The position numbers and the translations under genes are program-made. A stretch of DNA of 61,092 nucleotides, filler included, from Dugesia japonica (lineage: Eukaryota): the NCBI GenBank assembly GCA_001938525.1. It is 4 parts of 4 records of this genome, joined end to end, with 100 filler letters (N's around TTAATTAATTAA, not from the genome) between each part and the next. Parts side by side here need not be neighbours in the genome. Positions count along the whole stretch, not along the records: positions 1 to 20,707 come from MQRL01557940.1; 3 more parts are not named here. One strand, 5' to 3'. The notes below the pieces were generated by a model, which saw nothing but the letters and a program-made list of their open reading frames with translations, was not told the DNA's origin and did no database searches. Shown one piece after another: positions 13,373-51,453 of this stretch. Each line of letters opens with the position of its first letter. Position 1 is the first letter of the stretch.

Positions 13373-13434
13373 TGATTAACCAAAAAAAAATAAACTACAA
13401 CGCTGATTAAATATTTTATTAAAAGTAAACATTT

Positions 13435-13817
13435 TTAGAGCAGATCCAATGCTCCCGGATCTAGCCACTGGTCAGGGGACGTTACTACAAAATTGAATGC
13501 AGCGATATCATCATCTTCGTCCCACTGCATATTATTAGGGTTGCCAATCTGCTTTGACAAGTCCGCAATATATTGTTTTAGGAATTCAATTTTTCGCTGT
13601 AGTAATTGCTTATTCTCAGCTTCCAAGGCCTTTGTCTGGATGGCAAGGTCATTTTGCTTCTTTACTATAGCGTCCAATCTTTTAAGTAGCTTATCTCGTT
13701 GGTCTAAATGTCGTAAGAGGGCCTCGTTGGTTTTTCGTTTCAGGTGCCTCTCTACCAGCAGACGGCGCAGTATACGGTGACATCTACGGAGATTGTTTGG
13801 GAATCGGATACGAGTCA
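13435..13817 (-). CDS. Element ORF D, 127 aa: Arg-rich N-terminus, coiled coil, acidic/aromatic C-terminus; start codon inferred to be completed by splicing (A|TG)
   Basis: Preceded by gctaatttgttttag|TG and followed by AATAAA. Ungapped same-length homologue at 46829-47211. Confidence 0.8.
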
Positions 13818-13950
13818 CTAAAACAAATTAGCATTAATTTAGTAAAATTTTCTCAATGGAAAAGAATATACAATTACTGAAAATAACAAAAGAAAATTCA
13901 AGAGACAGTTCAAGCTATAAAATTTATTAACAAAAGAGGTGGTCTCCCAG

Positions 13951-14309
13951 TTAACTCTTAGGGGTTTGGGTGCTTTTCTCCACCATTAGAGGTTCTAGGG
14001 GCATAGATGTCTTCAACTTCAGAACATCACTTACCAGTTTATTCTCTCGGTCTTGGTAGGACCGGATCATCTCGACCAAAGACTCTACCTGGCCCTTCCA
14101 TACCCTCTCTTGTGCATGGGAGGCCTCAACTTCCTTCCTAAAAGCCACGCATTTTTTTCGATAGCGGCTTACTTTGCTATTGGCGTTAGCTGTATCCGCC
14201 TCCCACTTACGCTTGGCCAGACGATACAGATCCCATGCCATTTCGTGGTCCTCGCTGTCGTCGCGCATCTTTTTCGTAGGAACCGGATTGCGATTTAAAG
14301 ATGAGTGCA
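13951..14309 (-). CDS. Element ORF C, 119 aa coiled-coil protein with C-terminal KSTQT (LC8-type motif); start codon inferred to be completed by splicing
   Basis: Preceded by acttttag|TG, with AATAAA shortly after the stop. Ungapped same-length homologue at 47337-47695. Confidence 0.8.
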
Positions 14310-14608
14310 CTAAAAGTTATATATTAAATTGGAGTAAGATTTAGAATTTTATGCATCCAGAGCAAAATATATATGTATAACTTTTCCTTTTAATTAGTTT
14401 AGTGAAATATCTAAATTTGGTCCGCTTTTATAAAAGAAGAGCTATAAAATTTTAATTACGATTCATGTTACAAGGAAAAATAATGGACAAACATGTGTTC
14501 TAAATTGAAAAATTTATAAAACACACTGACAGTTTAGTTAGTCAAGGAGTGGGGTCTGTGTTTTCTAAAGCGCCACCACTGGCCCGATTCCGCAGATCCC
14601 ATAGGGTA

Positions 14609-14935
14609 TTACCAAGATCTAGTGCCTCGCGGAAGGTGGTTGATTGACACAGGCAATAAGGACGGCCCATCTTGCCATCTGCTAGTAGTTTGGTCACTTA
14701 TTGAGTCATTTGTGATAATCCGGTGTAGTACTTCTTGAGTGCGGTCGGGGCCAGACCATTTATAGTAGGCTTGGCGCTCTGCAGCGGCCCATTCCCTTTC
14801 GTTTTCCTCCTCTTCCCGATTCAAGTTAGAATAATCTGCCAGAATACCCGCGTTCCGGTCATGCGGGTTCTTATACCTCTTAAAAATGGTACGCCCCATG
14901 CAGCAGTCCCATAACAATTCCCATTTATATTCCAT
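14609..14935 (-). CDS. Element ORF B, 108 aa (MEYKW...), unknown function
   Basis: Acceptor ttacag| just upstream (exon starts 14952). Homologous to 47935-48243 (IFxRxxNPHxRxAGIL, ERQxYxxWxGPxRT). Confidence 0.75.
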   Translation of the reverse strand: MEYKWELLWDCCMGRTIFKRYKNPHDRNAGILADYSNLNREEEENEREWAAAERQAYYKWSGPDRTQEVLHRIITNDSISDQTTSRWQDGPSLLPVSINHLPRGTRSW

Positions 14936-15108
14936 AGTAATGGGTTTATTTCCTGTAACAATAACTAATGAAGAGAGATGCATTTATGTAAGTAAATAAT
15001 TTATATTCAACGAAAATAAGTTAAAATACAACACGAATTTTGAGTTAAACAAAATTGCAATACACCATCATTTTAAATGCTCAGTCCTTGTGTATTGAGA
15101 GGAGGTAG

Positions 15109-15291
15109 TTATTCTTCATCGAGATCCACCTTAAGTTCTAGGGGGAACATCTCAACGAAACACTGAAGATCAGTTTCGTCAGGATAATCCACGACCCCGT
15201 GCGAAAGAATATGCATTAATAATTGTCTATTTCGTGCTTTACCCCTTTCAAATTGAATTAGGGTGAGCATCTCGGTTAACTGATCGGCCAT
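15109..15291 (-). CDS. Element ORF A, 60 aa, with PDETDLxCFVEMFP motif
   Basis: Acceptor ttttatag| at 15305. Homologous to 48375-48581. Confidence 0.75.
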   Translation of the reverse strand: MADQLTEMLTLIQFERGKARNRQLLMHILSHGVVDYPDETDLQCFVEMFPLELKVDLDEE

Positions 15292-16731
15292 GATTCCGGT
15301 TTACCTATAAAACAAAATAAAATATTTGCTTCATTTTATCCATGGAACTTGGGAAAGGAAAACGGTGGGCAATCCTCATAAACATGTGCCTGAAATTGAA
15401 TTCTCTAGATTATTTCATTTAGTTATTTTGCAGAACTACGACATCTGTTTAACTGATGCCTTTCTATTTAACAAAAGATATATGTAGGCGGATCGGAATC
15501 TGCGAGAATGCTGCATTATTCCATTTAATTCTTTAAATCAAAATTTGAATTAATTCATATCGGGCCTAGAATAATCAAGGTCATTTAAATAGGGCAAACA
15601 CTGGAAATTTATCATTATTTGTAAAATAAGATGCATATTTTTTATTTCAAAATCGGAATTATTTGTGTTGTTATTAGTGATAACCCAAGGTCGACTAGCT
15701 GAGAGCTAAATTTATATCTCGCTCTATTCTCACTCATGAAGTCAGAATGTTGTAGGTGTGTTCGGTACACAGAACAATCTAGTTATCGTGAACGTGTGTA
15801 TGATCACTGTCAGACTTATGTGGAATGAGATTACACGCTAACTAAGTTGGATGTATTGATTTGATTGAATAATATAACGAGTGTCCCTGTAAGTTATATA
15901 CAATTGTTGCTGCTATGTTAGATTGGTTGGCACTAGGCTGAATGATAATCATAACATCATCGTGAATACTCAGTGCAGATATGTGGTAGAACCTCTACCA
16001 GTTAACATTTGCAACAAATTTTATGATAAGAAAAATGAGAGATATATAATAAACTATTCCTTGACTCGTGACAGTTCTATGCATATCAGACAAAATGAAG
16101 ATAATAGCAGCTGGTAGTTAAATGAAATGATTAAAGTGCTCTCACGCACACCCAGCTCATATACAATAGCAGGCATATTTTGTCTGGTATATTATCTACA
16201 TTTGTTAATTGTATGGCTATGAGAAATTTTCTAATAGTATGCACTGAGAAATTTCAATGAGATTCTAGTGGTTATTCTTTTGGAATTTACTTTATGTCTG
16301 ATATTTCCGTGGATGTGTGTATTTTTACTTCAGAAAGAGTGAGTTATATTATTTAAAATACATTTTATATCTGATTTTTATCTTAATTTCTTATCATACA
16401 ATTTGACATTACTAAAGACAGTCAAGGCATCAAATCAACTGGTCATATAATTCAAATGTGGTTTTCTACTAAATTTAGCAATATACGAAATGATGACTCG
16501 ATTTTACGATGTTCTGCTTTATTTTGATAAAAACATGCTTCATACTTAACAATCATTTTAACTTTAAGCGAGTACAAAAAAAATATGCAGGATTTAATTG
16601 TTGTCATTGACTAATTGTAACTGAAACAAAAAAAATCATTTCAAACTTTACGAATTAAATTTTATTAAGATAACATCATCATAATTATAGTAAATTCTAC
16701 TATTAATCACTCAAGAAAATTAAAATTTTAC

Positions 16732-17055
16732 TTTGTATTAAAGGAGTTCTGCAATCGTAGATATCGAAAATTTGTCACTGTCAATGGTTATGTAACTTCT
16801 TTTCTTTATCTTAGGCTGGAACTAATTTTTTCGGTTTGATAATTCTATAGCGATCTTTTTCAATAACAAGGAATCAATTGAATCTTCTAAATGAATTTGT
16901 GTAAATATGAAAAACCTTTCGTTTTCAGCTAGATACCTGATGCAATAAGACTGGTTATCGTGAGATATATGATTTCGTTTCCTCAAAACTTGAATTTTCT
17001 TACAATATGTCGCTAGTTTAGCAGAGTTCAAAAAATGGTGATTATTTTTTATATA
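16732..17055 (-). other. Putative non-coding leader exon of the element, ending TACAAA|GTAAAA
   Basis: Lies directly downstream of the TATA box. The same TACAAA|GTAA donor is in copy 2 (49751) and an A|GTAAC donor in copy 3 (51230). The start position is inferred. Confidence 0.5.
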
Positions 17056-17078
17056 TCTGTTGTTAAAGTTAGGGGTCC

Positions 17079-17280
17079 TTTTATAAGATTTGTCTTACAC
17101 CCCAACTAGGCCCAGATTTGCTGATATTTTTAGATCAGCTTTTTTTTGCTTTCATTGGTTCTGTTGCTGATCTTCTAAAATTTTCTATGGTTTTNGGTGC
17201 TGCTATTGGCAGCTATTTTTATCAGACCACCTGATTTTTTGGTCTTTGTTTTATTTTTAATTTCAGGTAGCTGATTGGTT
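17079..17280 (-). promoter_or_regulatory. Pol II promoter of the element: 3 CCAAT boxes, GGGGTG box, TATAAAA
   Basis: Minus-strand CCAAT at 17274-78, 17205-09 and 17154-58; GGGGTG at ~17100; TATAAAAGG at 17085-17077. Conserved in copy 2 (TATAAAA 50006-50000). Confidence 0.7.
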
Positions 17281-18844
17281 CGATCTTCGAAACCCTGTAG
17301 TACCTTTCCGGATGATAGTATTTTTTTCTTTTTTGTAATCTCCATTGCACCAGATTGTTCTTCCTTCATTTTTTCTTACCCCGACTCTTTCCGACTTCTT
17401 GAGGCAAAGTTATCCGGATAAAATAGATTTTCCGTTAATTTTGTTTCTTTTTTATTTTAAAATTAATTAATTTTTTTTGTTAATTAATTATTTTTCATTC
17501 TACCTTTTCTTGGTGTTTCTTATTAATTTATTAATTTTTCTTAATTCTTACCCGTAAGTAGCTTTCATTTTACTTGGTTCCTCATTTTCATTTTTGATTT
17601 TACTTCGTTTCCTTCCCATATTGATTTCGAACTTTATTTTTCGGTGATCATTATTATCTGTTAATTTTTTAGTTCATTTTCCTTTAGCGGGTGTTTCACC
17701 CCAACAAAATATAAAAATAATAAAACTATTATATTATATTTTATCTTAAATACTGGGATTTCTATACTTACTATTGTAACTTATTTATTATATATAAGTA
17801 AGAGATACTAGTGCATTGGAACAGTACACATTCAATAAAACCCTATTCACTGACGTAACTTACTACTGAGATAACCTGAAATTGGATGTTTTAATCAATT
17901 ATATAATGGCATCATCAGAAATTTCATTCTCCAATTAATTTTCTTATGTAATTTTAAAAGTATTTCTCAAATTTAAGGCGGTAAAATTTCATGTTTTTAG
18001 ATGGTTAAATTTTTTTCTGTTTTTAGTTGTCAAAAATTTTTCACAGCTGAAGCACCAATATTTTTAAGGCTTTTCTACGATATTATTTTCTAAGCTTTTT
18101 AATTGGCAAAAAAATTTTGAGATTTTTCAATGTAATTCTAGTGTAAAAGTTTTTGTTTAAAAAATATGAAAATTTTTTAAATCAGATTTTTACAGGAATT
18201 TGGGTGAACAACCCAAATGTCATCCTTACATGAAATAATCATGTCTATTAGATAAAGAATTTTCCGATGGTTATAGTTAACAATCGTTATACTTTATCCT
18301 TCTTGAAATAAATGAGGTCTTAAGGTGAAAAATTCAAATTTCAGATTTTAGCGCACAAAGCTCTGTGCCGATAAAGCGTATGGACTCATATTTGGTTTTA
18401 TTTAAATCAGGAGGAAAAATTAACTGTATACAATCGGGAAAAAAGCTTCCTAACGAAGACATTAACCTGTCCTCCGGATTTTGGGACTTCTTCGAAAAAA
18501 TGATGCATGTCAAAATTTATAAAAATTGACACCATTCTATAAAGACATTTACGGTAAGAAAAACATCGGCTAATATCGTCAAACCTTATAGATAAAATTT
18601 TACATAGAAAAACATGTACTTACTTTGAGTCTCATCTGAGGAACTAATGAATTTTAGAAAAAGTAAATCAAATTTTTAACAGCAAACAAACTATTTGGTT
18701 ACAGGGTACAAACTATGAGATGTCTATACACACTCTTGGCTGTAAAAATTACTCTTCGTCTTAGTATAATTAATGAAATCAGTATATTGTTTGCATTCTA
18801 AGTAAAATTATTTTCAAACATTGTTTCAATAACAGTTTTGATTG

Positions 18845-29085: not shown

Positions 29086-29988
29086 TTAAAAATAAATAAT
29101 ATTACCCAATATATCATACTCCATTCTATAATGATTTCTTAAATTGTTTTCTGATTCAATTACGCGTAATTTCGATGCTATTCTGAGATATATTGGAATA
29201 ATTACAACAAGTTTAAGCCACGTAACTGTCACATAAACGTAATAAATTCTCGAACTGATAATATCACATTGGCACTGAAAAAAGCTGTGACCTTTTGTAC
29301 CGATATCAAGTATTAGAGCAACAATTGCAACTAATAATGGCATTATAAAGCAAAAATGTTTTAAAGACGATTTAATTACTCGCAACTGAGTTTCTTGATA
29401 AAAAATGATTGAATAAACGTGAATAAATAGTGACAACATAGATGAATGATAAAACAAATCCAAGAACAATGGTAGAAATGTGAAAAGCATGCACCATTCA
29501 TAAGTTGCACGACTAGAATTTATGAAACACATAGCAATCAATATAAATAAGTGTGATGATTTTGCTTTTAACAGCCAGACAACAAATCTCCAATTGAAAT
29601 CCTTGACAATTTCTGGATATTCTGATATATAATAAATTCCGGTTTGATAAATCAATAATATAAATGGATTGATAAGTAACATAAATGTTCTTTCTATTGT
29701 TATACGATAATAGAATTCTTTTGAATAGCAATCATCATAAACTTTACTGTCATTATAATTCCAACTTCCATTATTACAAATCGGTTTGATATAAGTGACA
29801 AAAAACGGGCATAATATTTCTTTATTTTCATTCATTTGATGTGGTGATAAACAAATTTGATAAGCCCATTTATTAGCACAGGTCAAATTTACAAACTTTG
29901 AACATTTCTTCTTTTCAGTTTTAAAAAACGTTGAAAATTTAGATTTCATGTGTTCCAATGAATTATCAGAAGGAGTTAGATAATACAT
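29086..29988 (-). CDS. 300-aa protein with Cys-rich N-terminal region and several predicted TM helices (divergent receptor-like)
   Basis: Uninterrupted 903-bp ORF with about five to six hydrophobic segments. No family recognised. Confidence 0.6.
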   Translation of the reverse strand: MYYLTPSDNSLEHMKSKFSTFFKTEKKKCSKFVNLTCANKWAYQICLSPHQMNENKEILCPFFVTYIKPICNNGSWNYNDSKVYDDCYSKEFYYRITIERTFMLLINPFILLIYQTGIYYISEYPEIVKDFNWRFVVWLLKAKSSHLFILIAMCFINSSRATYEWCMLFTFLPLFLDLFYHSSMLSLFIHVYSIIFYQETQLRVIKSSLKHFCFIMPLLVAIVALILDIGTKGHSFFQCQCDIISSRIYYVYVTVTWLKLVVIIPIYLRIASKLRVIESENNLRNHYRMEYDILGNIIYF

Positions 29989-36716: not shown

Positions 36717-38760
36717 TTAATAGCTTCGATTTCGTATACCTTTCACGCTCACAATATGTATCAGAAATTTAATTTCTTGTTTTAGAAATTCACACTTCTC
36801 AGGATTAACTCTTAACCCCGCACCCATTATCCGTTTCAATACTTCCTCTACTACAATGTAATGACTCGCCTCATCCTTTGAAAAAACTAATAATATTGCT
36901 CCCTTCAGATTATTTATCACTTTCTCCTGGAATGTACTAGGCGCTGCTGCTATTCCAAATGGCATCTTGGTAAAACAGTATTGCTTGTGATTTATCGAAA
37001 ATGCGGTTTTCTCTTGAGAATCTTTTTCTAGTTCTGCATTATCCAAGTCAATCGAGCTAAAATATCTATTTCCGTGGAACTGTCCAACTTCTCATCTATA
37101 TTTGGCATAGGAAATGCTTGTCTTTCAGTTATCGTATTTAATCTTCTAAAATTCAAACACAGTCTAATATCCTTTTTCTTTCTTCCAGATACATACTAAC
37201 GGCGCATTCTAAGCTGAATTACATTTCCAAATAATTCCATTCTCCACCAAGTTCCGAATCGTCTCTTCAACATGGTTTTTTAGTTGTAATGGAATTCTAT
37301 ATGGTTTCTTTTTGATTGGCTCTCCATTTGTCACAATTTTATGTTTAGCCAAATGAGTACAACCCACATCCTATTTGGAAGCCATAAAAACATTTACTCT
37401 CCTCTTGCAAATCTCTTGTGCTTTACTTCCATTTACAATACCTGCCGTTTTTTCACTCTTTCCCGTTTATCTACTTCTGCAGCTTCCATACCCAATCTTG
37501 TTTCAATGTTTTCTAACAATTCTCTCCTGTTAATTTCTCTATTTGCATTACTTTCTCTCTTAAGTTGAAACCCAAAAATGTGTTGAAAATTTATTCCTCC
37601 AATAACATTTAAATACACACTTTCCACCAATATAAATTCAACTTCTGCTCTTTTCTCTCTCAGCTGAACTTTCAATCGTATATTCCCTTTAGTATTTAGG
37701 CCACTACCATTAGCACAATGTAACTTTTATCCTGTAGCTTCCACTTTTACTTCAAGCGATTTCTCTAAGCATGACTCGTTAATCATATTAATACAAGCTC
37801 CTGTATCAAAAAGATAGTCCATTACAACTCCACCAATAATTATTGTTAAACTTGGTCTGCCCTGCATTTTATCGAAACTTATTTTTACCTGTTGACCTCC
37901 TGACAATACTTCCACCCACTCCTCAACATTATCCACATGAAACTTCTCTTTCTTTAGAAAACTATATATTTTCTCATAGATTTTCTCTCTATTTTTCCAT
38001 TTCTCTACTCTATGAGGACCTTCCTTGATTGAATTTTCTAATAAATGACTCTAACCACTTCCTCCTTTATTGAAGCTTTCCAATTTGGGTACAGTATCTC
38101 TGATCCATATTCAAGAAGGAAACCTTCTCGTTGATTTCCTTCTTCTTGTGTTTCACTGCATTAAAATAATCATACCAACTTCTCTGTTCCTTTTTTCTAT
38201 TTTTTTCTATCTTCCATTTTGCTTTTTCCTCCATATTATCGGCACCCTGATGCTCTGTGACCGGTCCTACCACATTGAAAACATCTCTCTTTCTTACACT
38301 CTCTTCTCATGTGTCCCATTTCTCCGCATCCAAAACATTTCTTTGTGAGCAATCTCTACTTAGTTGATCTCGTCGTGTGCATGTCCAACATTCTCACTTT
38401 TGGTTCCGTTTTCTGTGTACTCACTACTTTTGCGTAGCTACGTATCATGTTAATTTGCTCCCTTTTCTTCTCTACTCGATCTACTAGAACTAGTGTTTCC
38501 TTAATTTCCCCCGGAGTATGTAACTTCCGCAATACTACCTATTCTTCTACTTTTCAGTTTTCAGACATCCATAACAGCACCTTAGCAACTAACCTCTCCT
38601 TTGTGAAATCTTTATTCTTAAATATTCTGTTCAACATAGATTCTACCGTCTTGATATATACGTCTATTTTGATATTATACCTCTCGGTAATGGAGTTGGT
38701 GCTTACCACTGCCACCATGTGAGACATAGATACCTCAGAATTTCCTAAATTTTCATTTAA
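36717..38760 (-). mobile_element. Decayed Ty3/Gypsy gag-pol (protease, RT)
   Basis: Protease YLFDTGA (37727-37936); RT EKTAFS...MPFGIAAAPSTFQ...LRVNPEKCEF (36717-37046). YxDD region missing; many frameshifts. Confidence 0.85.
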
Positions 38761-39008: not shown

Positions 39009-39246
39009 ATCAGCGCAAGCTAGTGACTTGTGCTTACTAGGAATTCCTCGTTCATGTGAAATAATTACAATTCACAATCCATGTTACTACAGTGTTTTAC
39101 AAGATTGTCGAACTATTTCTAGTAAGGTATACTCGTTGGAACTGCCATTGTAGCGCGCGTGCGGTCCCGGACATCTAAGGGAATCACAGGCCTGTTATTG
39201 CTCTTTGTCATTTAGCTAGACGCTATTTATTCTTCTAAGAAGTGAT
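38962..39246 (-). rRNA. 18S rRNA gene fragment (3' region), isolated pseudogenic copy
   Basis: acgggcggtgtgtacaaagggcagggacgtaatc and ggacatctaagggaatcacaggcctgttattgc are reverse complements of conserved eukaryotic SSU segments. Flanks are not rRNA. Confidence 0.92.
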
Positions 39247-40630: not shown

Positions 40631-41070
40631 ATGCTTGTAAGGTTAATAAGTTTTTAAAATATTTGACTAGTTTTTAGCCTAAGTATATTGTGCAAATTAT
40701 TCTGGGAATTTCCAGAGTATTTGGACGAGCAATCGGTAAAGCTGTGAAAGAAGAATATATAGCAAGTCAACAAGCTTCAAAAGGAAGAAATAACAACTCT
40801 AAAACTGCTGAAAGTATTTACACTGATTTATCCTCGAGTATTTCATTGGAAGAAGCAAAATTAATATTAAACATTAAAGATTTATATAACATTGAAGACA
40901 TTAATCAAAAGTATACGTTACTATTTGAAAACAATGATAAATCTAAAGGTGGTAGCCTGTATTTACAATCAAAAGTTAGTAAATTATACATATTAATTAA
41001 ATTATATTAATGTTAGGTTTATCGGGCCAAAGAACGTATTGACCAAGAAATAATGAACATTAACAAATAA
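40631..41070 (+). CDS. PAM16: Mitochondrial import motor subunit PAM16/TIM16 (Magmas); exons 40631-40636, 40678-40974, 41017-41070
   Basis: Spliced product [25 protein letters not shown]...[12 protein letters not shown]...[23 protein letters not shown]; GT-AG introns of 41 and 42 nt. The first micro-exon is inferred. Confidence 0.93.
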
Positions 41071-41129: not shown

Positions 41130-42610
41130 TTATTTCATTGGATCTGCTAATGACCTTCTCCTTTCTTCATTTTGAATCGATTGCGTAATTAATCGTATGG
41201 CGTATTCTACGTTTTGACATAATCCAATAACAGTAACAATTCGATTCGTTGTATTCGGTGCATAGACTCCTTTCTTGGACACTTTAATGTCAGTGGATGT
41301 GTGGCCTTTTAATTCTGAAATCGATGATCCTCTTTTACCCAATATATGGCCTACTATTGTCTCGGGTATCTACAAAAAAAGTTAATTAAAAATTGCATTG
41401 TTAATTATAATTAAATTGAATGATTGAATTAAAAATTGATCTCTAAAGCATGTCCGATGAAGGATGATGAGGACAATTAACTCACCGCTAACTCAATCTG
41501 CATGCTTTTGAGAGGTCCATTTCATTATTTTTTTATTAACATGAAATCACCATCTACTTCCTTTATTTACTACAAAAATTTTCCTTTTCATAACCATAAT
41601 AAATAGAACATTCACCTCAATTGACCTTTCTATTTTATCCATTTTATTAGAAATATTTCCTGAAATATAATTAATGTTCCTGGAAATTTAAGATCTGTTA
41701 GCTTACTGTATGTTTGATCACATTCATTCATAAAAGTATTATTTGGATCAATATTGTGTAAAAGTGATTTTGAAATCGACACAGGTGCATAATTTTCTGG
41801 TGCAACTGAATTTCCCCATACAGATTGTTGATACAAACTTTGAGAATTAGTAGATACGTAATTTAGCATAGAAAGACTATTAAATGCACAATCTTGAGAT
41901 ATTGCATTTACAATTTTTTTAATTGCAATTAACAATTGAGTTAAATTTCCTGTAATAACAACACATCTTTCCGATACTAAACTCCCTTCGACTTTCTGAG
42001 ATAACTGTATATGAACTCCACTCTCTTCTTTTATTTCTTGTACATACTTTCCATTTTTACCGATAATAACACCAGCAGCTGCATTAGAAACCAATAACTT
42101 AATCTAATAAATTTTAACACGCAATCAAATTTTCATATTTTACTTGAGGACGCTTATTTAATTGTGATGAATTATTTATCTGATCATAAGTATTAATTAT
42201 TTTGTCAACGACAAACCCAGTAAAATTAATTACGGATTCAGAAGTTCCAGAAACTAAACATATTCTTTCATTAGTACCTTAACAAAATTATAAAAATTTG
42301 TGACGTCTTAAATATTACCTGGATAAAACTCTCCAACTTTAGATATTTTAGCAACTGCTCCACTATTCTGCTGAGCATTAATGATGTCTTCTCCCTTTTT
42401 CCCCAATATCGCACCTACTGAAACATTAGGAATTAACATCTTAAGAATAACATTGCCTGGGATTATTTAATAATATCTATATTTCATTTTTCATAAGTTA
42501 CTATGATATTTTTTATTTAATACAATATCATCATTTTCTAAGGGGCGTTTCCTACAGCTTTTAATAATAACAGGATCAGTTTGAACAGATGAATCAATTT
42601 TTTCAGCCAT
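41130..42610 (-). CDS. Nova: Nova/pasilla-family triple-KH splicing regulator; exons 42610-42502, 42456-42319, 42277-42144, 42103-?, ..., 41369-41130
   Basis: KH1 LKMLIPNVSVGAILGKKG...FYPGTNERICLVSG; KH2 AAGVIIGKNG...QLSQK...ERCVVITG; KH3 VGHILGKRG...VSKKGVYAPNTTNRIVTVIG. Introns 40-45 nt. Linker exons unresolved. Confidence 0.92.
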
Positions 42611-46596: not shown

Positions 46597-46782
46597 TGTT
46601 GGGTTTCCACCTGAGTTACGTATCAAAAATTGGTTGGCTGGGGAAAAACAGCCTTCAGGGGACCCTTTGAAGAATTTAACCTAAAGTCCCTGGTTTAGGT
46701 ATTCAGTGTAGAGTGGTTGACCTCCTTCTTCATGGGAGGTGCACACTCGTACACCTTTAATTTGGGTTCATGATTTTCCCTT
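46597..46782 (-). ncRNA. Conserved structured RNA element (copy 2)
   Basis: Minus-strand hairpins GTGTA.GAGTG/CACTCTACAC, ACCTCC/GGAGGT, CCTAAA/TTTAGG and GGCTG/CAGCC. Confidence 0.65.
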
Positions 46783-46828
46783 AAATAACTCAAACAAAAC
46801 ATCGTTTAAAGTATCTATTATTAACACA

Positions 46829-47211
46829 TTATAATTCATCCAAAGCGCCAGGGTCGAGCCACTGGGCTGGGTCAGTTAACAAAAAGTTGAAAGAAACTGT
46901 ATCGTCGTTGTCATTCCATTGCATCCAAGTGGGGTTGCCAAGTTGGCGAGAGAGGTCAGAAATATATTGCTTTAAGAAGTCAATTTTCCTTTGCAGGGAT
47001 TGTTTAATTTCCTCCTCGAGGTCATTTGTTTGGATTGCTAGCTCACTTTGCTTTTTAACTATCATATTAAGTTTCTTTATCAGTTTATCTCGTTGAGTGA
47101 GATGCTTTAGGAGTGCCCTGTCTGTTTTCCGTTTAAGGTGCTTTTCTACTAAGAGTCGGCGCATTATTCTGTGACAACGTCGAATACTATTCGGGAAGAT
47201 AATGTGAGGCA
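46829..47211 (-). CDS. Element ORF D copy 2, 127 aa from spliced A|TG
   Basis: tttctttcag|TGCCTCAC acceptor; ungapped alignment to 13435-13817. Confidence 0.8.
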
Positions 47212-47336
47212 CTGAAAGAAAATTATTAATGATATTCATTTTTCATTTATGAGAAAACTAAATGTAAAGACGGAAACAATTCAGACGAAATTAAACACAA
47301 ATAAAAAAATATATTAAATTGCAGTAAAACACGGGT

Positions 47337-47695
47337 TTACGGACGAGAGGTCTGGACCCCTTTATTCATCATCAGCGGTGTTAAGGGCATGGCTTTCCTC
47401 AAGTTTATAACATCATCCACCAGTTTATTCTCTCGGTCTTGATTGGACCGGATAATATCGGTAAGGGACTCTAACTGTGCCTTCCAAACTCGTTCTTGTT
47501 GATGTGACGCCTCGGCTTCCGCTTTGAAGGCCANGCATTCCCTTTTGTAATGCTGAACTTTGGCAGCTGCGTTTGCTACATCCACCTCCCAGCGCCGTTT
47601 AGCCAACTTATATAGGTCCCAAGTGATCTCGGTGTCGTCACTAGAAGCCCTTACTTTCTTGGTCGGGGCCGCAACACGATTCAGTGAGGAGTGCA
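47337..47695 (-). CDS. Element ORF C copy 2, 119 aa from spliced A|TG, C-terminal KGVQT
   Basis: tttcttctag|TGCACTCC acceptor; ungapped alignment to 13951-14309. Confidence 0.8.
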
Positions 47696-47934
47696 CTAGA
47701 AGAAACGCAATTTATCAAACATGATATAAAGATTTGGTGAATAAAATCAATCACTTACATCAATTGCTACTCGGTGGACATTTTATCCATCGTTAAGGTT
47801 AATTTTAATAAAAGATAAATTTACATGACAAAAAGATTTGGTTAAAAATCCGGAACAAATATATATTTTATTGTAAGACACCAAAAAAAAAATCACTAAT
47901 GAGTAGGGGCTGAATCAGCCACGGGTGCTGTATT

Positions 47935-48243
47935 CTAGGAATCTTCGCTACTCGAGGGTTCTCTTACACCCCATAATAAATTGTTAATATAGGCCTGCAC
48001 CGCTGGAGGTGGGGCGGAAGGTTGATACTGGAATGACGTGGCAAGGGTTCGGCCAGGCCCCGTCCAGCTCTGATAACTTTGTCGCTCACCAAAGTCTTGG
48101 ATCCTGGCGACCATGGCCTCTACCGGAGGTAAGTTAGACCGATTGGATAAAATACCGGCATCCCGACGATGAGGGTTTCTATGTCGTCGGAAAATGATGC
48201 GACGAGTCCTGCGGTCAATCATTCTTTCCCATATTGATTCCAT
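47935..48243 (-). CDS. Element ORF B copy 2, 102 aa
   Basis: tgtttcag|AATG acceptor; AATAAA downstream (~47870); homologous to 14609-14935. Confidence 0.75.
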   Translation of the reverse strand: MESIWERMIDRRTRRIIFRRHRNPHRRDAGILSNRSNLPPVEAMVARIQDFGERQSYQSWTGPGRTLATSFQYQPSAPPPAVQAYINNLLWGVREPSSSEDS

Positions 48244-48374
48244 TCTGAAACATAAAATTTAATTTATCATAACAGACCAGTACATTAATTAGTAAACTGA
48301 ACAGACAAAAATAAGAAGTAAAGATTTAAATTGGACATTTAATCAGGCATAACAAATTTCCTATTTCAATGAAA

Positions 48375-48581
48375 TTAGTTGTACTCTCGCAGAGACCCTG
48401 CTTCTTCATCTATATCTATTTTCGCAGTCGATGGAAACATCTCGACGAAGCAAATCAAATCGGTTTCGTCAGGATGCCTAATTAGACTGGGAGCTATGAG
48501 ATGCCCGATTAATTGCCTTTTGCGTGATCGTTCGCGCTCTCGTTGAATGAATTGAAGAGTCAATAGGAGTATATTCGACAT
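48375..48581 (-). CDS. Element ORF A copy 2, 68 aa (MSNIL...)
   Basis: gtttcag|ATACCCCATG acceptor at 48589; shares PDETDLxCFVEMFP and KxDxDEE with copy 1. Confidence 0.75.
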   Translation of the reverse strand: MSNILLLTLQFIQRERERSRKRQLIGHLIAPSLIRHPDETDLICFVEMFPSTAKIDIDEEAGSLREYN

Positions 48582-50411
48582 GGGGTATCTGAAACTGATG
48601 CACAATTATTATACCATTTGCAAAAAAAATTAGTTATTCCACAGGTTTTTATTGTTTACCTGTAAAAGCAACACTCGAAATTTTACTATAATTGCGTATG
48701 ACAAGAACTAATTCACTTCTGAGAGTGCTCGAGAACCTGAACATAATAGTCAAGGTAAGTAGTAGGGTTAGTTGCAAATAGCACTATTTCCTTTTCCTTA
48801 TAAATTGGGTAAGATTTGCGTCCACAGGAATCGGTTAATAATGCTAGTCAGTAGTTTCAGTGGTGACGATATGAATTTTAATATCCTTAATAGTGAATGT
48901 TTAACCATCAATTATTACACTAGTAATACACCCATTTATTATTATTTTAATAATTGTACGGAGGTTATGATATCCATATATGATTATATATCCTTATTAT
49001 AATGTTATTTTAATATTATTAACTGTTGTTAGTTATAATTAGAATCTTATTTATTCTTATCCCCCTGATTTTAGTTGTTAAAAACCATTATAAATATTCG
49101 GTCATATAATGTATTTTTAATTATGATTGAATTTGGGCGTTACCGGTAACTTAGCACCACGAAGGTCACAGCAGGTTTGCAGTAATAGCCCCCAATACAC
49201 GCTGGCGTGTAGAAAAGAAAATAATATCTGTAGGTGTGCAGACTAATTTTATTTCATATCGACTAATTTAACATCATCACTATAGAAGTAATTTTCTTGT
49301 TACCTCATTTACATACTACGGCAACTTAATTCACTATCGATGTTAGTTGGTCATTGTATACACGGAAAATTGCATAACTAACATGCTGGTATTCCGTTGA
49401 TATTATCTTTAACAAATCGACTCAATTTTGTGCAGAGCAAGCAAGTGAGCGTACGATTAATCAGTTGACTTTATCCACCAAAATATTTTTATTGTTAACA
49501 ATAGTAATATAAAAATAATNNNNNNNNNNNNNNNNNNNNNNNNNNNNNNNNNNNNNNNNNNNNNNNNNNNNNNNNNNNNNNNNNNNNNNNNNNNNNNNNN
49601 NNNNNNNNNNNNNNNNNNNNNNNNNNNNNNNNNNNNNNNNNNNNNNNNNNNNNNNNNNNNNNNNNNNNNNNNNNNNNNNNNNNNNNNNNNNNNNNNNTTC
49701 TGCTGTTACGAAAAATTGAAGCTAATTTATGATCAAAATAATAGAATTACTTTGTAGCTTGGCAGCAAATTGATCTATGCGAGATAACTAATCACGTCTT
49801 TTTCCAATAAATTATAATGGTGGTAGAATAACTGTTCTCGGATAATCGTCGACTTCGCAGTTTTTATTGTAGTTAAATTTTCAGTTGTTTGTGGTTTGCA
49901 GTTGATTTTTTGTAGTTGTAGTTGAAGTTAAAGTTGTAGTTGTAATTGTAGTTGTAGTTGTTTTTAAATTTGTGTGTTTTCTGCTAATTCCATGATTCCT
50001 TTTATACAATTTTTCTTAGCACCCCAACTTTTTTCATAATCGCTGGTTATTTTTAATTTGATTTTACTGATTTTGATTGGTTCTACTGCCAATCTTCTGA
50101 AATTTTTTTCAGAGTTTTAGAGTTCCAATTGGCGGCTATTTTTAAATCATCAGGTGAGACTTAGTGCTTTGTTTTATTTTTAAATTTCAGAATGCTATTG
50201 GACCAATCTTAGAATCTTCGTGGGGGTCCTCTAGATGGTGGTACCAGTTTCTTGTGTCAAAATTCCGATGACCTGATCCAAATCCTTCCCGAATTTTCTT
50301 CTGCCCAGCTCCTGTGTCTTTTGGTTGTAAAGTTATTCGTATAAAACGAATTTTTTGCTAATTTTGGTTTATTTTATTTCTGAATTAATTAATATTTTTT
50401 CTTTTTACAAT

Positions 50412-51453
50412 TGTTGGGGTGAAACACTCAGCGGAATGAGAAATAAAATCAAAGGGGGTCATAAATCATTCATTATCAAAACAAAAATAATATTATGGGA
50501 AGGAAAATGGAAAATCAAACAAGAAGAATCAGGATCATATTAATAAACAAAAATGGAAAGATTCAGACGATTAAACTAAGTTGGATTAATTATAATAATC
50601 GAAGGATTTAATAAAATTAAGAAAGAAAACGATTAACAGAAAAAGAAATAATTACAAAAAAATGTCAATTAATTTAAACGAAAAAAATTAATTAAATTTG
50701 GGCAGAAATTCTAATTATGCTGGTAACTTCGCTCCTGGTAAACCTATGAGGGAGGCTCAAGAAAATCCTTGCAGAGTTTCGGCTAACGCATCGGAATTTG
50801 GGTATACCAAAGCTCTAACATCATTCGGAGAACTTCTGCAGAGGTTTGAAGCTTGAGCCAATGACGAACCTGAAATTATAATTAAAACAAAGACACAATT
50901 NNNNNNNNNNNNNNNNNNNNNNNNNNNNNNNNNNNNNNNNNNNNNNNNNNNNNNNNNNNNNNNNNNNNNNNNNNNNNNNNNNNNNNNNNNNNNNNNNNNN
51001 NNNNNNNNNNNNNNNNNNNNNNNNNNNNNNNNNNNNNNNNNNNNNNNNNNNNTAAAAGAACCCCTGAATTTAGCAGAAAATCATCAACAAAATTTTTGAT
51101 ACTTAGAGTGTGAATACTTTCAGCACATTTATCGCAGAATTATTATCGAGAAAAGAAACCAAAACCACGTATCACTCTTAATTAATTATCGTCTATCCCG
51201 AGGAATTCAATTTCACCAGAGCACCAGCGAGTAACTTACGATTAATTTTGTTTCAATTAATTCTGTTTCGAAAGAAGAAGAAATCACCACCGAAGAACTC
51301 TGTTTTTTGCCCAAATAATACATCTAGCGATAGCCAGACCCGATGCGAAAACCGTAACAGGAATTCACCAGTTAATATGAAAAAAGTAAATTGTTATTTT
51401 GATTATGTTAAAAGTTGTATTAAGAAGAAATTTTGAATATTATTTAAATAAAT
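50412..51453 (+). mobile_element. Novel element copy 3 (promoter end only), inverted and apparently nested in copy 2
   Basis: Begins TGTTGGGGTGAAACAC, identical to the reverse of the copy 1 right end. Shares acctgaaatta.aa.taaaacaaagac; (TA)TAAAAGAACCCCT follows the gap at 51053. Runs off the scaffold end. Confidence 0.75.

Follow-up and report, generated by a model that had tools for sequence, protein, structure and literature searches.

We analyzed a 61,092-nucleotide stretch of Dugesia japonica DNA (GenBank assembly GCA_001938525.1), hereafter the window, which joins parts of four records with filler and is mostly 20-30% GC with many N gaps. It holds three copies of a 4.5-kb repeat unit, two of which carry four short open reading frames (ORFs), A to D. 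The stretch that an initial annotation had flagged for these ORFs has a second copy at 46.6-48.6 kb, with 66.6% identity over 1,155 aligned bases. Throughout, the minus strand is the ORF-bearing strand of copies 1 and 2, copy 3 lies on the plus strand, and a number after an ORF letter gives the copy.

13186-17706, minus strand: copy 1, the whole unit of 4,521 bp, a probable solo long terminal repeat (LTR) with 8-bp inverted ends and ATTT at each flank
46597-50403, minus strand: copy 2, with A at 48581-48375, B at 48243-47935, C at 47695-47337 (one N), D at 47211-46829 and its 3' end at 46597
50412-51453, plus strand: copy 3, with the 5' end, a U3-like part, a TATA remnant at 51053, the leader and a donor-like site at 51386

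Copy 2 lacks the 5' 300 bp, and its promoter and leader are separated from its ORFs by a 178-N scaffold gap. Copy 3 stands head to head with copy 2 and is interrupted by an assembly gap ahead of any ORF. At the junction of the two (50403-50412), copy 3 seems to have inserted about 300 bp inside the 5' end of copy 2, or the arrangement is an assembly artefact. The unit belongs to a large, diverged multi-copy family: in DNA-like contig runs, 737 records match copy 1 (29 of 30 bins) and 4936 match copy 2 (30 of 30 bins), where read depth gives no copy number.

In both copies, ORFs A to D each have a pyrimidine-rich YAG in front and their own stop, which bears out on the minus strand the earlier description of a 3' splice site just upstream of each ORF, in the form of an acceptor-like AG.

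15304-15109, minus strand: cassette A, copy 1; acceptor (first exon base) at 15304, own ATG at 15291, ORF 15291-15109, 60 amino acids
14952-14609, minus strand: cassette B, copy 1; acceptor at 14952 (or 14964), own ATG at 14935, ORF 14935-14609, 108 amino acids
14309-13951, minus strand: cassette C, copy 1; acceptor at 14309, TG directly after the AG, 119 codons if the leader gives an A
13817-13435, minus strand: cassette D, copy 1; acceptor at 13817, TG directly after the AG, 127 codons if the leader gives an A
48588 (or 48659), 48244, 47695 and 47211, minus strand: first exon base after the AG for A, B, C and D, copy 2
13415-13420, minus strand: AATAAA after D1, not conserved in copy 2
13186-13371, minus strand: conserved non-coding 3' block, 74% identical (137/184) and so above any ORF; copy 2 equivalent at 46597-46785

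Between copies 1 and 2 the proteins are 50% (A), 41% (B), 62% (C) and 69% (D) identical. The proportion of synonymous differences (pS) is 0.79, 0.82, 0.69 and 0.83, respectively, near saturation, while that of nonsynonymous differences (pN) is 0.35, 0.40, 0.25 and 0.19. The A-B, B-C and C-D spacers are AT-rich and poorly alignable, as initially reported (123-297 nt, 69-77% AT, 45-50% identical when aligned). Because pN lies well under the near-saturated pS while the spacers align so poorly, the ORFs are real, and all four are under purifying selection. The acceptor motif by itself is weak evidence, since such sites are common in AT-rich DNA (22 and 19 within the two units at a cut of 9 pyrimidines in 14); it is the position that is telling. 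An acceptor-like site lies at most 20 nt from 292 of the 2039 ATGs in the window (14%), versus all four of the A and B starts. In both copies the AG before ORF A (15304; 48659, minus strand) is followed by GTAAAC, so this acceptor is possibly a donor too, as in a recursive or zero-length-exon site; in copy 2, GTAAAC at 48659 would delimit a 71-nt intron ahead of the second acceptor at 48588.

C and D begin differently. TG stands directly after the AG in all four cases (two copies), versus 49 of 943 comparable acceptors, and identity between the copies jumps across the AG, from 10/28 to 19/28 in C and from 9/28 to 17/28 in D. In-frame stops lie 3 (C1), 6 (C2), 4 (D1) and 11 (D2) codons upstream of the acceptor. 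The first in-frame ATG comes at codon 15 in C1, 103 in C2, 97 in D1 and 17 in D2, none of them common to both copies, and this lack of a shared ATG had been overlooked. The codons before those ATGs are constrained at the protein level: 10 of 13 residues are identical in C, 8 of them via synonymous codons, and 10 of 15 in D, 6 via synonymous codons. Since conserved coding begins at AG|TG, no ATG is shared and upstream stops are close, C and D need an upstream exon for their start. We lean toward the view that this exon supplies one base, and that an A would yield the ATG (A|TG).

Upstream of the ORFs, and outside the coordinates of the initial annotation, 17076-17481 aligns with 49997-50403. 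This region contains candidate elements for a common promoter and leader.

17078-17278, minus strand: predicted promoter, copy 1; CCAAT at 17278, 17209 and 17158, GT box at 17105, TATAAAAG at 17085
50201 to 50006, minus strand: predicted promoter, copy 2; CCAAT at 50201, 50132 and 50080, GT box at 50027, TATAAAAG at 50006, in the same order as in copy 1
17060-16732, minus strand: predicted non-coding leader exon, ATG-free and ending in A; its start is placed about 25-30 nt past the TATA box
16726-16737, minus strand: donor-like AAA/GTAA (GT at 16731), weak, without G at -1 or +5

Internal RNA polymerase II promoter motifs near the 5' end are thus conserved in copies 1 and 2 (three CCAAT boxes, GT box and TATA box), and the promoter is predicted from motif evidence only. 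It lies 1.8 kb upstream of the cassette; measured from the 5' end of the unit, the TATA boxes are 621 and about 639 bp in. A second TATAAAAG at 14432 was considered as a separate promoter for C and rejected, as it is not conserved in copy 2. Amid the promoter CCAAT boxes are MEF2-like A/T boxes, as judged by the MEF2 consensus, at 17260, 50183, 50145 and 50056 (minus strand), which could hint at tissue-specific activity. Both 5' ends also have TATGGGAAGGAAA in common, about 85 bp inside the terminus (17619, minus strand; about 50496, plus strand), and the frames it opens are short and differ.

No ATG occurs between 17155 and 16682 in copy 1, nor in copy 2 between 49993 and the gap at 49698; in the window, 2% of 330-nt and 4% of 240-nt stretches are ATG-free. 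Both of these ATG-free stretches contain TACAAA/GTAA, with the GT at 16731 in copy 1 and 49750 in copy 2, and copy 3 has AAA/GTAA at 51386. Leaders were compared by unguided best local alignment with the TATA box removed and 200 shuffles. Between copies 1 and 3, the best alignment places AAA/GTAA in register, and 1 of 200 shuffles scored as high; between copies 2 and 3, it pairs the copy 2 site with another A/GTAA at 51231 (28/200 shuffles). In windows anchored on GT, the donor pair ranks 9 of 4028 and 2 of 1140, and the donor triple is tied 5th of 60,420. The donor at 16731 is a fair candidate on these comparisons, if unproven. A shared 10-mer alone was rejected as evidence, as the copies have 12 of them in common upstream of A. 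The B-C spacer of copy 2 holds a perfect GTAAGT that is not conserved; an exon ending there would have T as its last base and an in-frame stop ahead of it.

The ends of copy 1 are TGTTGGGG at 17706 and CCCCAACA at 13186, which give TG...CA termini with an 8-bp inverted match. ATTT stands on either side of the unit, a duplication expected by chance at about 1-2%. TGTTGGGG occurs three times in the window, each time at an end of this 4.5-kb unit's family; copy 2 has the same 3' end as copy 1, and copy 3 the same 5' end. The 3' block begins with a purine tract. Both copies preserve 21 predicted pairs, of which 5 differ at the two partners alike (9/500 shuffles); the test is biased in its own favour, as the two sequences compared also yielded the structure. 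Its folding energy is unremarkable (z of -0.58 and -1.75). One-sided changes in its hairpins are G-U pairs on the ORF strand, a hint at RNA structure on that strand, and the block is probably a U5-side structured element. A direct-repeat relationship between the 5' end and the 3' block was not significant (52/300 shuffles).

We take these features to mark the 4.5-kb unit as a flatworm retroelement's (solo) LTR, an assignment that we consider fairly likely. The initial annotation had compared the locus to a complex viral transcription unit; it is not a stand-alone viral unit and is probably a retroelement LTR. Scans of viral and metagenome collections found no true relative, and Rfam gave no match within it. 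A 21-nt terminal pattern match in metagenome contig L001 is a chance match, with nothing else in common with the unit. We also rejected a Penelope/hammerhead reading of 17076-17736 and its head-to-head partner at 50 kb, as this is the 5' part of the unit itself, and likewise a relationship to the planarian virus-like element PEVE, as no Rep or helicase ORF was seen.

We propose that a predicted single TATA promoter of this solo-LTR-like unit would express all four ORFs, that one non-coding leader would cis-splice to four alternative acceptors, and that the leader's last A likely completes the start codon of C and D. A single promoter serving alternative acceptors accounts best for the locus because there is a conserved promoter and a donor-like site upstream, C and D need an upstream exon, and there is no strong conserved donor that would chain the ORFs together. 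From these sequence features, we judge one promoter with four acceptors to be likely. For the full combination, four conserved ORFs in a probable solo LTR, expressed by cis-splicing of the leader with an A completing the C and D starts, we see an even chance. In it, we infer the start site near 17060, the donor at 16731, the A/TG joint and the LTR identity.

Transcription was assessed in five RNA runs (X6, X7, X8, X10 and X11), of each of which 6-26% was read. Copy 1 drew 65 reads from X7, 9 from X10 and 3 from X6, and copy 2 drew 144 from X7, 84 from X8 and 24 from X11. Depth was highest on the 3' block and the AT-rich flank, with most reads on the 3' block. These partial-fit reads stem from relatives. 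One X7 joint of two reads, from 49228 to 50667, meets no acceptor. In these libraries the copies seem to be transcribed little if at all, an outcome that does not decide for or against the splicing model. In a planarian, LTR elements are repressed by SMEDWI-2, according to passages of PMC8532177.

Several observations weigh against the proposed reading. All 329 RNA reads fit only partly, none at 99% or above, with depth below 2 on the ORFs, and no splice joint at any acceptor had RNA support among all three joints listed for copy 1 and 15 of the 20 for copy 2, with coverage almost nil in the five runs. The donor matches only 4-5 of 7 consensus positions. The leader alignment of copies 1 and 2 has AAA/GTAA in register but is not significant (107/200 shuffles), the copy 2-3 donor pair ranks 109 of 795, also not significant, and the triple is outscored by four other GT triples. 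In copy 3, two ATGs (51343 and 51377) precede the donor at 51386, the second by 9 nt and out of frame with C and D. D2 alone carries an in-frame ATG ahead of its acceptor, 9 codons away in the pyrimidine region. The copy 2 promoter is joined to its ORFs only across the 178-N gap. As for LTR identity, the ATTT on both flanks of copy 1 amounts to four AT-rich base pairs seen in a single copy, the other two being incomplete; in addition, no primer-binding site (PBS), polypurine tract (PPT) or gag-pol was seen beside any of the three copies in the window. Finally, polyadenylation hexamers occur at chance level, and four terminal exons are unproven.

This last point bears on an alternative that keeps the promoter and leader but adds a cleavage of every message behind its own ORF, giving four alternative terminal exons. 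The initial annotation had noted a polyadenylation signal after most ORFs, and the hexamers are indeed at the places described: AATAAA at 13420, 13928 and 47872, ATTAAA at 48343, TATAAA at 14518 and AATATA at 47315. One of the four hexamer kinds is found in seven of eight spacers, and one lies about 22 nt past the C stop in both copies (13928 and 47315). In passages of PMC11952523, a short transcript of MDG1-group elements likewise ends at a polyadenylation site after sORF1. However, the frequency is within chance, both for AATAAA (3 of 8 spacers, versus a mean of 1.7 in 1000 shuffles, p 0.23) and for any of the four (shuffle mean 4.8, p 0.08). None of the four follows D2, AATAAA is equally frequent upstream of ORF A (3 and 5 times in the two copies), and no read-end cluster was found in the RNA runs examined. 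A separate polyadenylation site for each ORF is therefore doubtful, as is the four-terminal-exon reading built on it; nested messages with a single 3' end would fit as well. Thus, of the polycistronic unit resolved by alternative splicing and polyadenylation that was originally proposed, the common promoter and acceptors are likely and the splicing is inferred, while the per-ORF polyadenylation does not rise above chance.

Alternatively, the unit could be a non-autonomous DNA transposon, possibly similar to Ginger, with TG...CA ends, a 4-bp duplication and a spliced passenger cassette. The lack of PBS, PPT and pol beside the three copies would fit this, as would the length of the R-U5 region implied by an LTR, about 3.9 kb, which would be very unusual for an LTR. 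Set against this, the inverted match is just 8 bp, the promoter sits where a U3 would have it, about 620-640 bp in from the 5' end, and giant gypsy-like elements of more than 30 kb with LTRs are known in planarians (passages of PMC6431247). We consider a DNA transposon unlikely.

C and D could also be downstream coding exons fused to an N-terminal coding exon, such as the first 29 codons of B via a phase-1 GT at 14847/48155. Both acceptors are phase 1, and this GT, the only phase-1 GT upstream of C that aligns between the copies, has an open ATG ahead of it; yet it scores 3 and 4 of 7, lies within a conserved Gly codon, and B is conserved beyond it. C1 has two strong internal donors, both of phase 0 and both lost in C2, and fusion would leave the TG at both acceptors unexplained, all of which makes it improbable. 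An operon resolved through spliced-leader (SL) trans-splicing by the host is very improbable: the anatomy is operon-like (acceptor, ORF, short AT-rich spacer) and SL trans-splicing occurs in flatworms including a planarian, where reported SLs end in ATG (passages of PMC12582326), but the SL AUG would be in frame at none of the eight nearest acceptors, would at C and D run into a stop after 0-15 codons and would leave C2 and D1 with no start until codons 103 and 97, an alternative upstream acceptor of A2 is in frame but meets a stop after 9 codons, and a cis donor candidate is present upstream.

Returning to the proposed leader-spliced unit, its four products are probably accessory, and probably regulatory, proteins of the element. 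A is predicted as three short helices (predicted local distance difference test score, pLDDT, of 70) and has the motif DETDLxCFVEMFP in common with copy 2. D is predicted from a two-sequence alignment as a single 84-residue helix (residues 8-91) with a low-confidence, conserved acidic/aromatic tail (mean pLDDT 78). C is coiled-coil-like, as is D, and ends with KSTQT in C1 and KGVQT in C2. KSTQT of C1 is the sole [KR]xTQT in six frames of the window and matches the DYNLL1/LC8 motif (as given in part of PMC3789673), so C carries a possible dynein-light-chain (LC8) binding motif. The searches gave no homologue for A to D. None of 26 homologue candidates for D and none of 25 for C held up; Pfam gave only sub-threshold coiled-coil matches. 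Pattern matches of D in viral and metagenome scans were not confirmed (0/293 and 0/379), an Atlas search with D gave no usable match, and a D profile against 1.84 billion proteins had one match, a DUF7507 repeat protein judged spurious. PDB sequences compared with A and B gave nothing under E 0.6, and the fold of A gave nothing at E 0.001 against viral models.

The rest of the window contains several other features, listed here by position.

6923-8044, plus strand: intronless ORF of 373 amino acids, no Pfam family above threshold
29086-29988, minus strand: hydrophobic ORF of 300 amino acids with several likely membrane segments, no Pfam match
36717-38050 and 54691-57105, minus strand: broken gypsy-like pol fragments (protease-, reverse transcriptase- and integrase-like by eye), with no link to the unit seen
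39050-39149, minus strand: 100-nt diverged fragment of eukaryotic small-subunit rRNA
40678-41010, plus strand: host exon of Pam16/Tim16, whose best named matches are flatworm proteins
41630-42103, minus strand: host exon of a KH-domain protein
20752, 32846 and 51498: TTAATTAATTAA flanked by two 44-N runs, an assembly linker, so that adjoining pieces are possibly non-contiguous

Adenovirus late units and complex retroviruses combine one promoter and leader with many acceptors. The resemblance of the unit to adenovirus late units and to the complex-retrovirus accessory region is analogy only, as no sequence or fold relation was found. The sag gene of mouse mammary tumour virus (MMTV) sits in U3, upstream of the promoter. 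Like A to D, which lie in a probable LTR, it is a protein gene within an LTR (described in part of PMC11998498), but it is one gene, whereas here there are four, downstream of the predicted promoter. In errantiviruses of the springer subclade, env is spliced to an AU dinucleotide that forms part of its start codon, according to passages of bioRxiv 10.1101/2023.08.03.551782. There a start codon is built by splicing from a non-coding upstream exon, as is predicted for C and D; in contrast to the unit, the leader gives AU for one env gene at a mapped joint, while here a single A would serve two of four genes at a predicted one.

Burro/GYPSM1 are giant gypsy-like LTR retrotransposons of planarians, with an interior of up to 25 kb and a total of more than 30 kb including LTRs (PMC6431247, in part). 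They resemble the unit's family in flatworm host, high copy number, accessory ORFs and room for multi-kb LTRs. They differ in that the accessory ORFs lie upstream of or inside the polyprotein, no LTR genes are mentioned in the passages cited, and A to D have no detectable homologues. Burro/GYPSM1 is recognized by a giant polyprotein with gag, env-like, PR-RT-RH-IN and BIR/BCL2 domains and by reverse transcriptase phylogeny, and no interior sequence is linked to the unit here. MDG1-group elements have sORF1 and sORF2, which are unspliced by long reads, upstream of gag and served by an internal polyadenylation site (PMC11952523, in part). These short accessory ORFs resemble A to D in being under purifying selection and in their place close to an LTR element's 5' end, but there are two of them and one encodes a membrane fusogen-like protein, unlike the helical, soluble-looking A to D. 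Each ingredient has precedent, and the literature search turned up no case of four genes downstream of a promoter within one LTR-like unit. It covered arrays of spliced ORFs within LTRs as well as split start codons and gave no account of such a unit; annotation of these LTRs may already exist in the planarian genome paper that introduced the name Burro, in its supplements or in repeat libraries.

Compared with the initial annotation, the gain is that the promoter, leader, donor and unit ends are located and the polyadenylation claim is demoted. As a tentative extension, the LTR may be a complete four-gene spliced unit, with the promoter in U3, the leader and genes in an R-U5 of about 3.9 kb, and two start codons assembled by splicing. 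If this is true, the strong-stop DNA made in reverse transcription would have to be unusually long. Under the AG|TG rule, translation of C and D would depend on correct splicing, and gene finders and ORF scans that require an ATG would miss both. With each solo LTR, recombination would leave a self-contained gene cassette under selection; scattered in many copies, such cassettes could regulate the element or the host without gag-pol. Solo LTRs usually count as leftover promoters; these would encode a group of selected proteins under the control of splicing.

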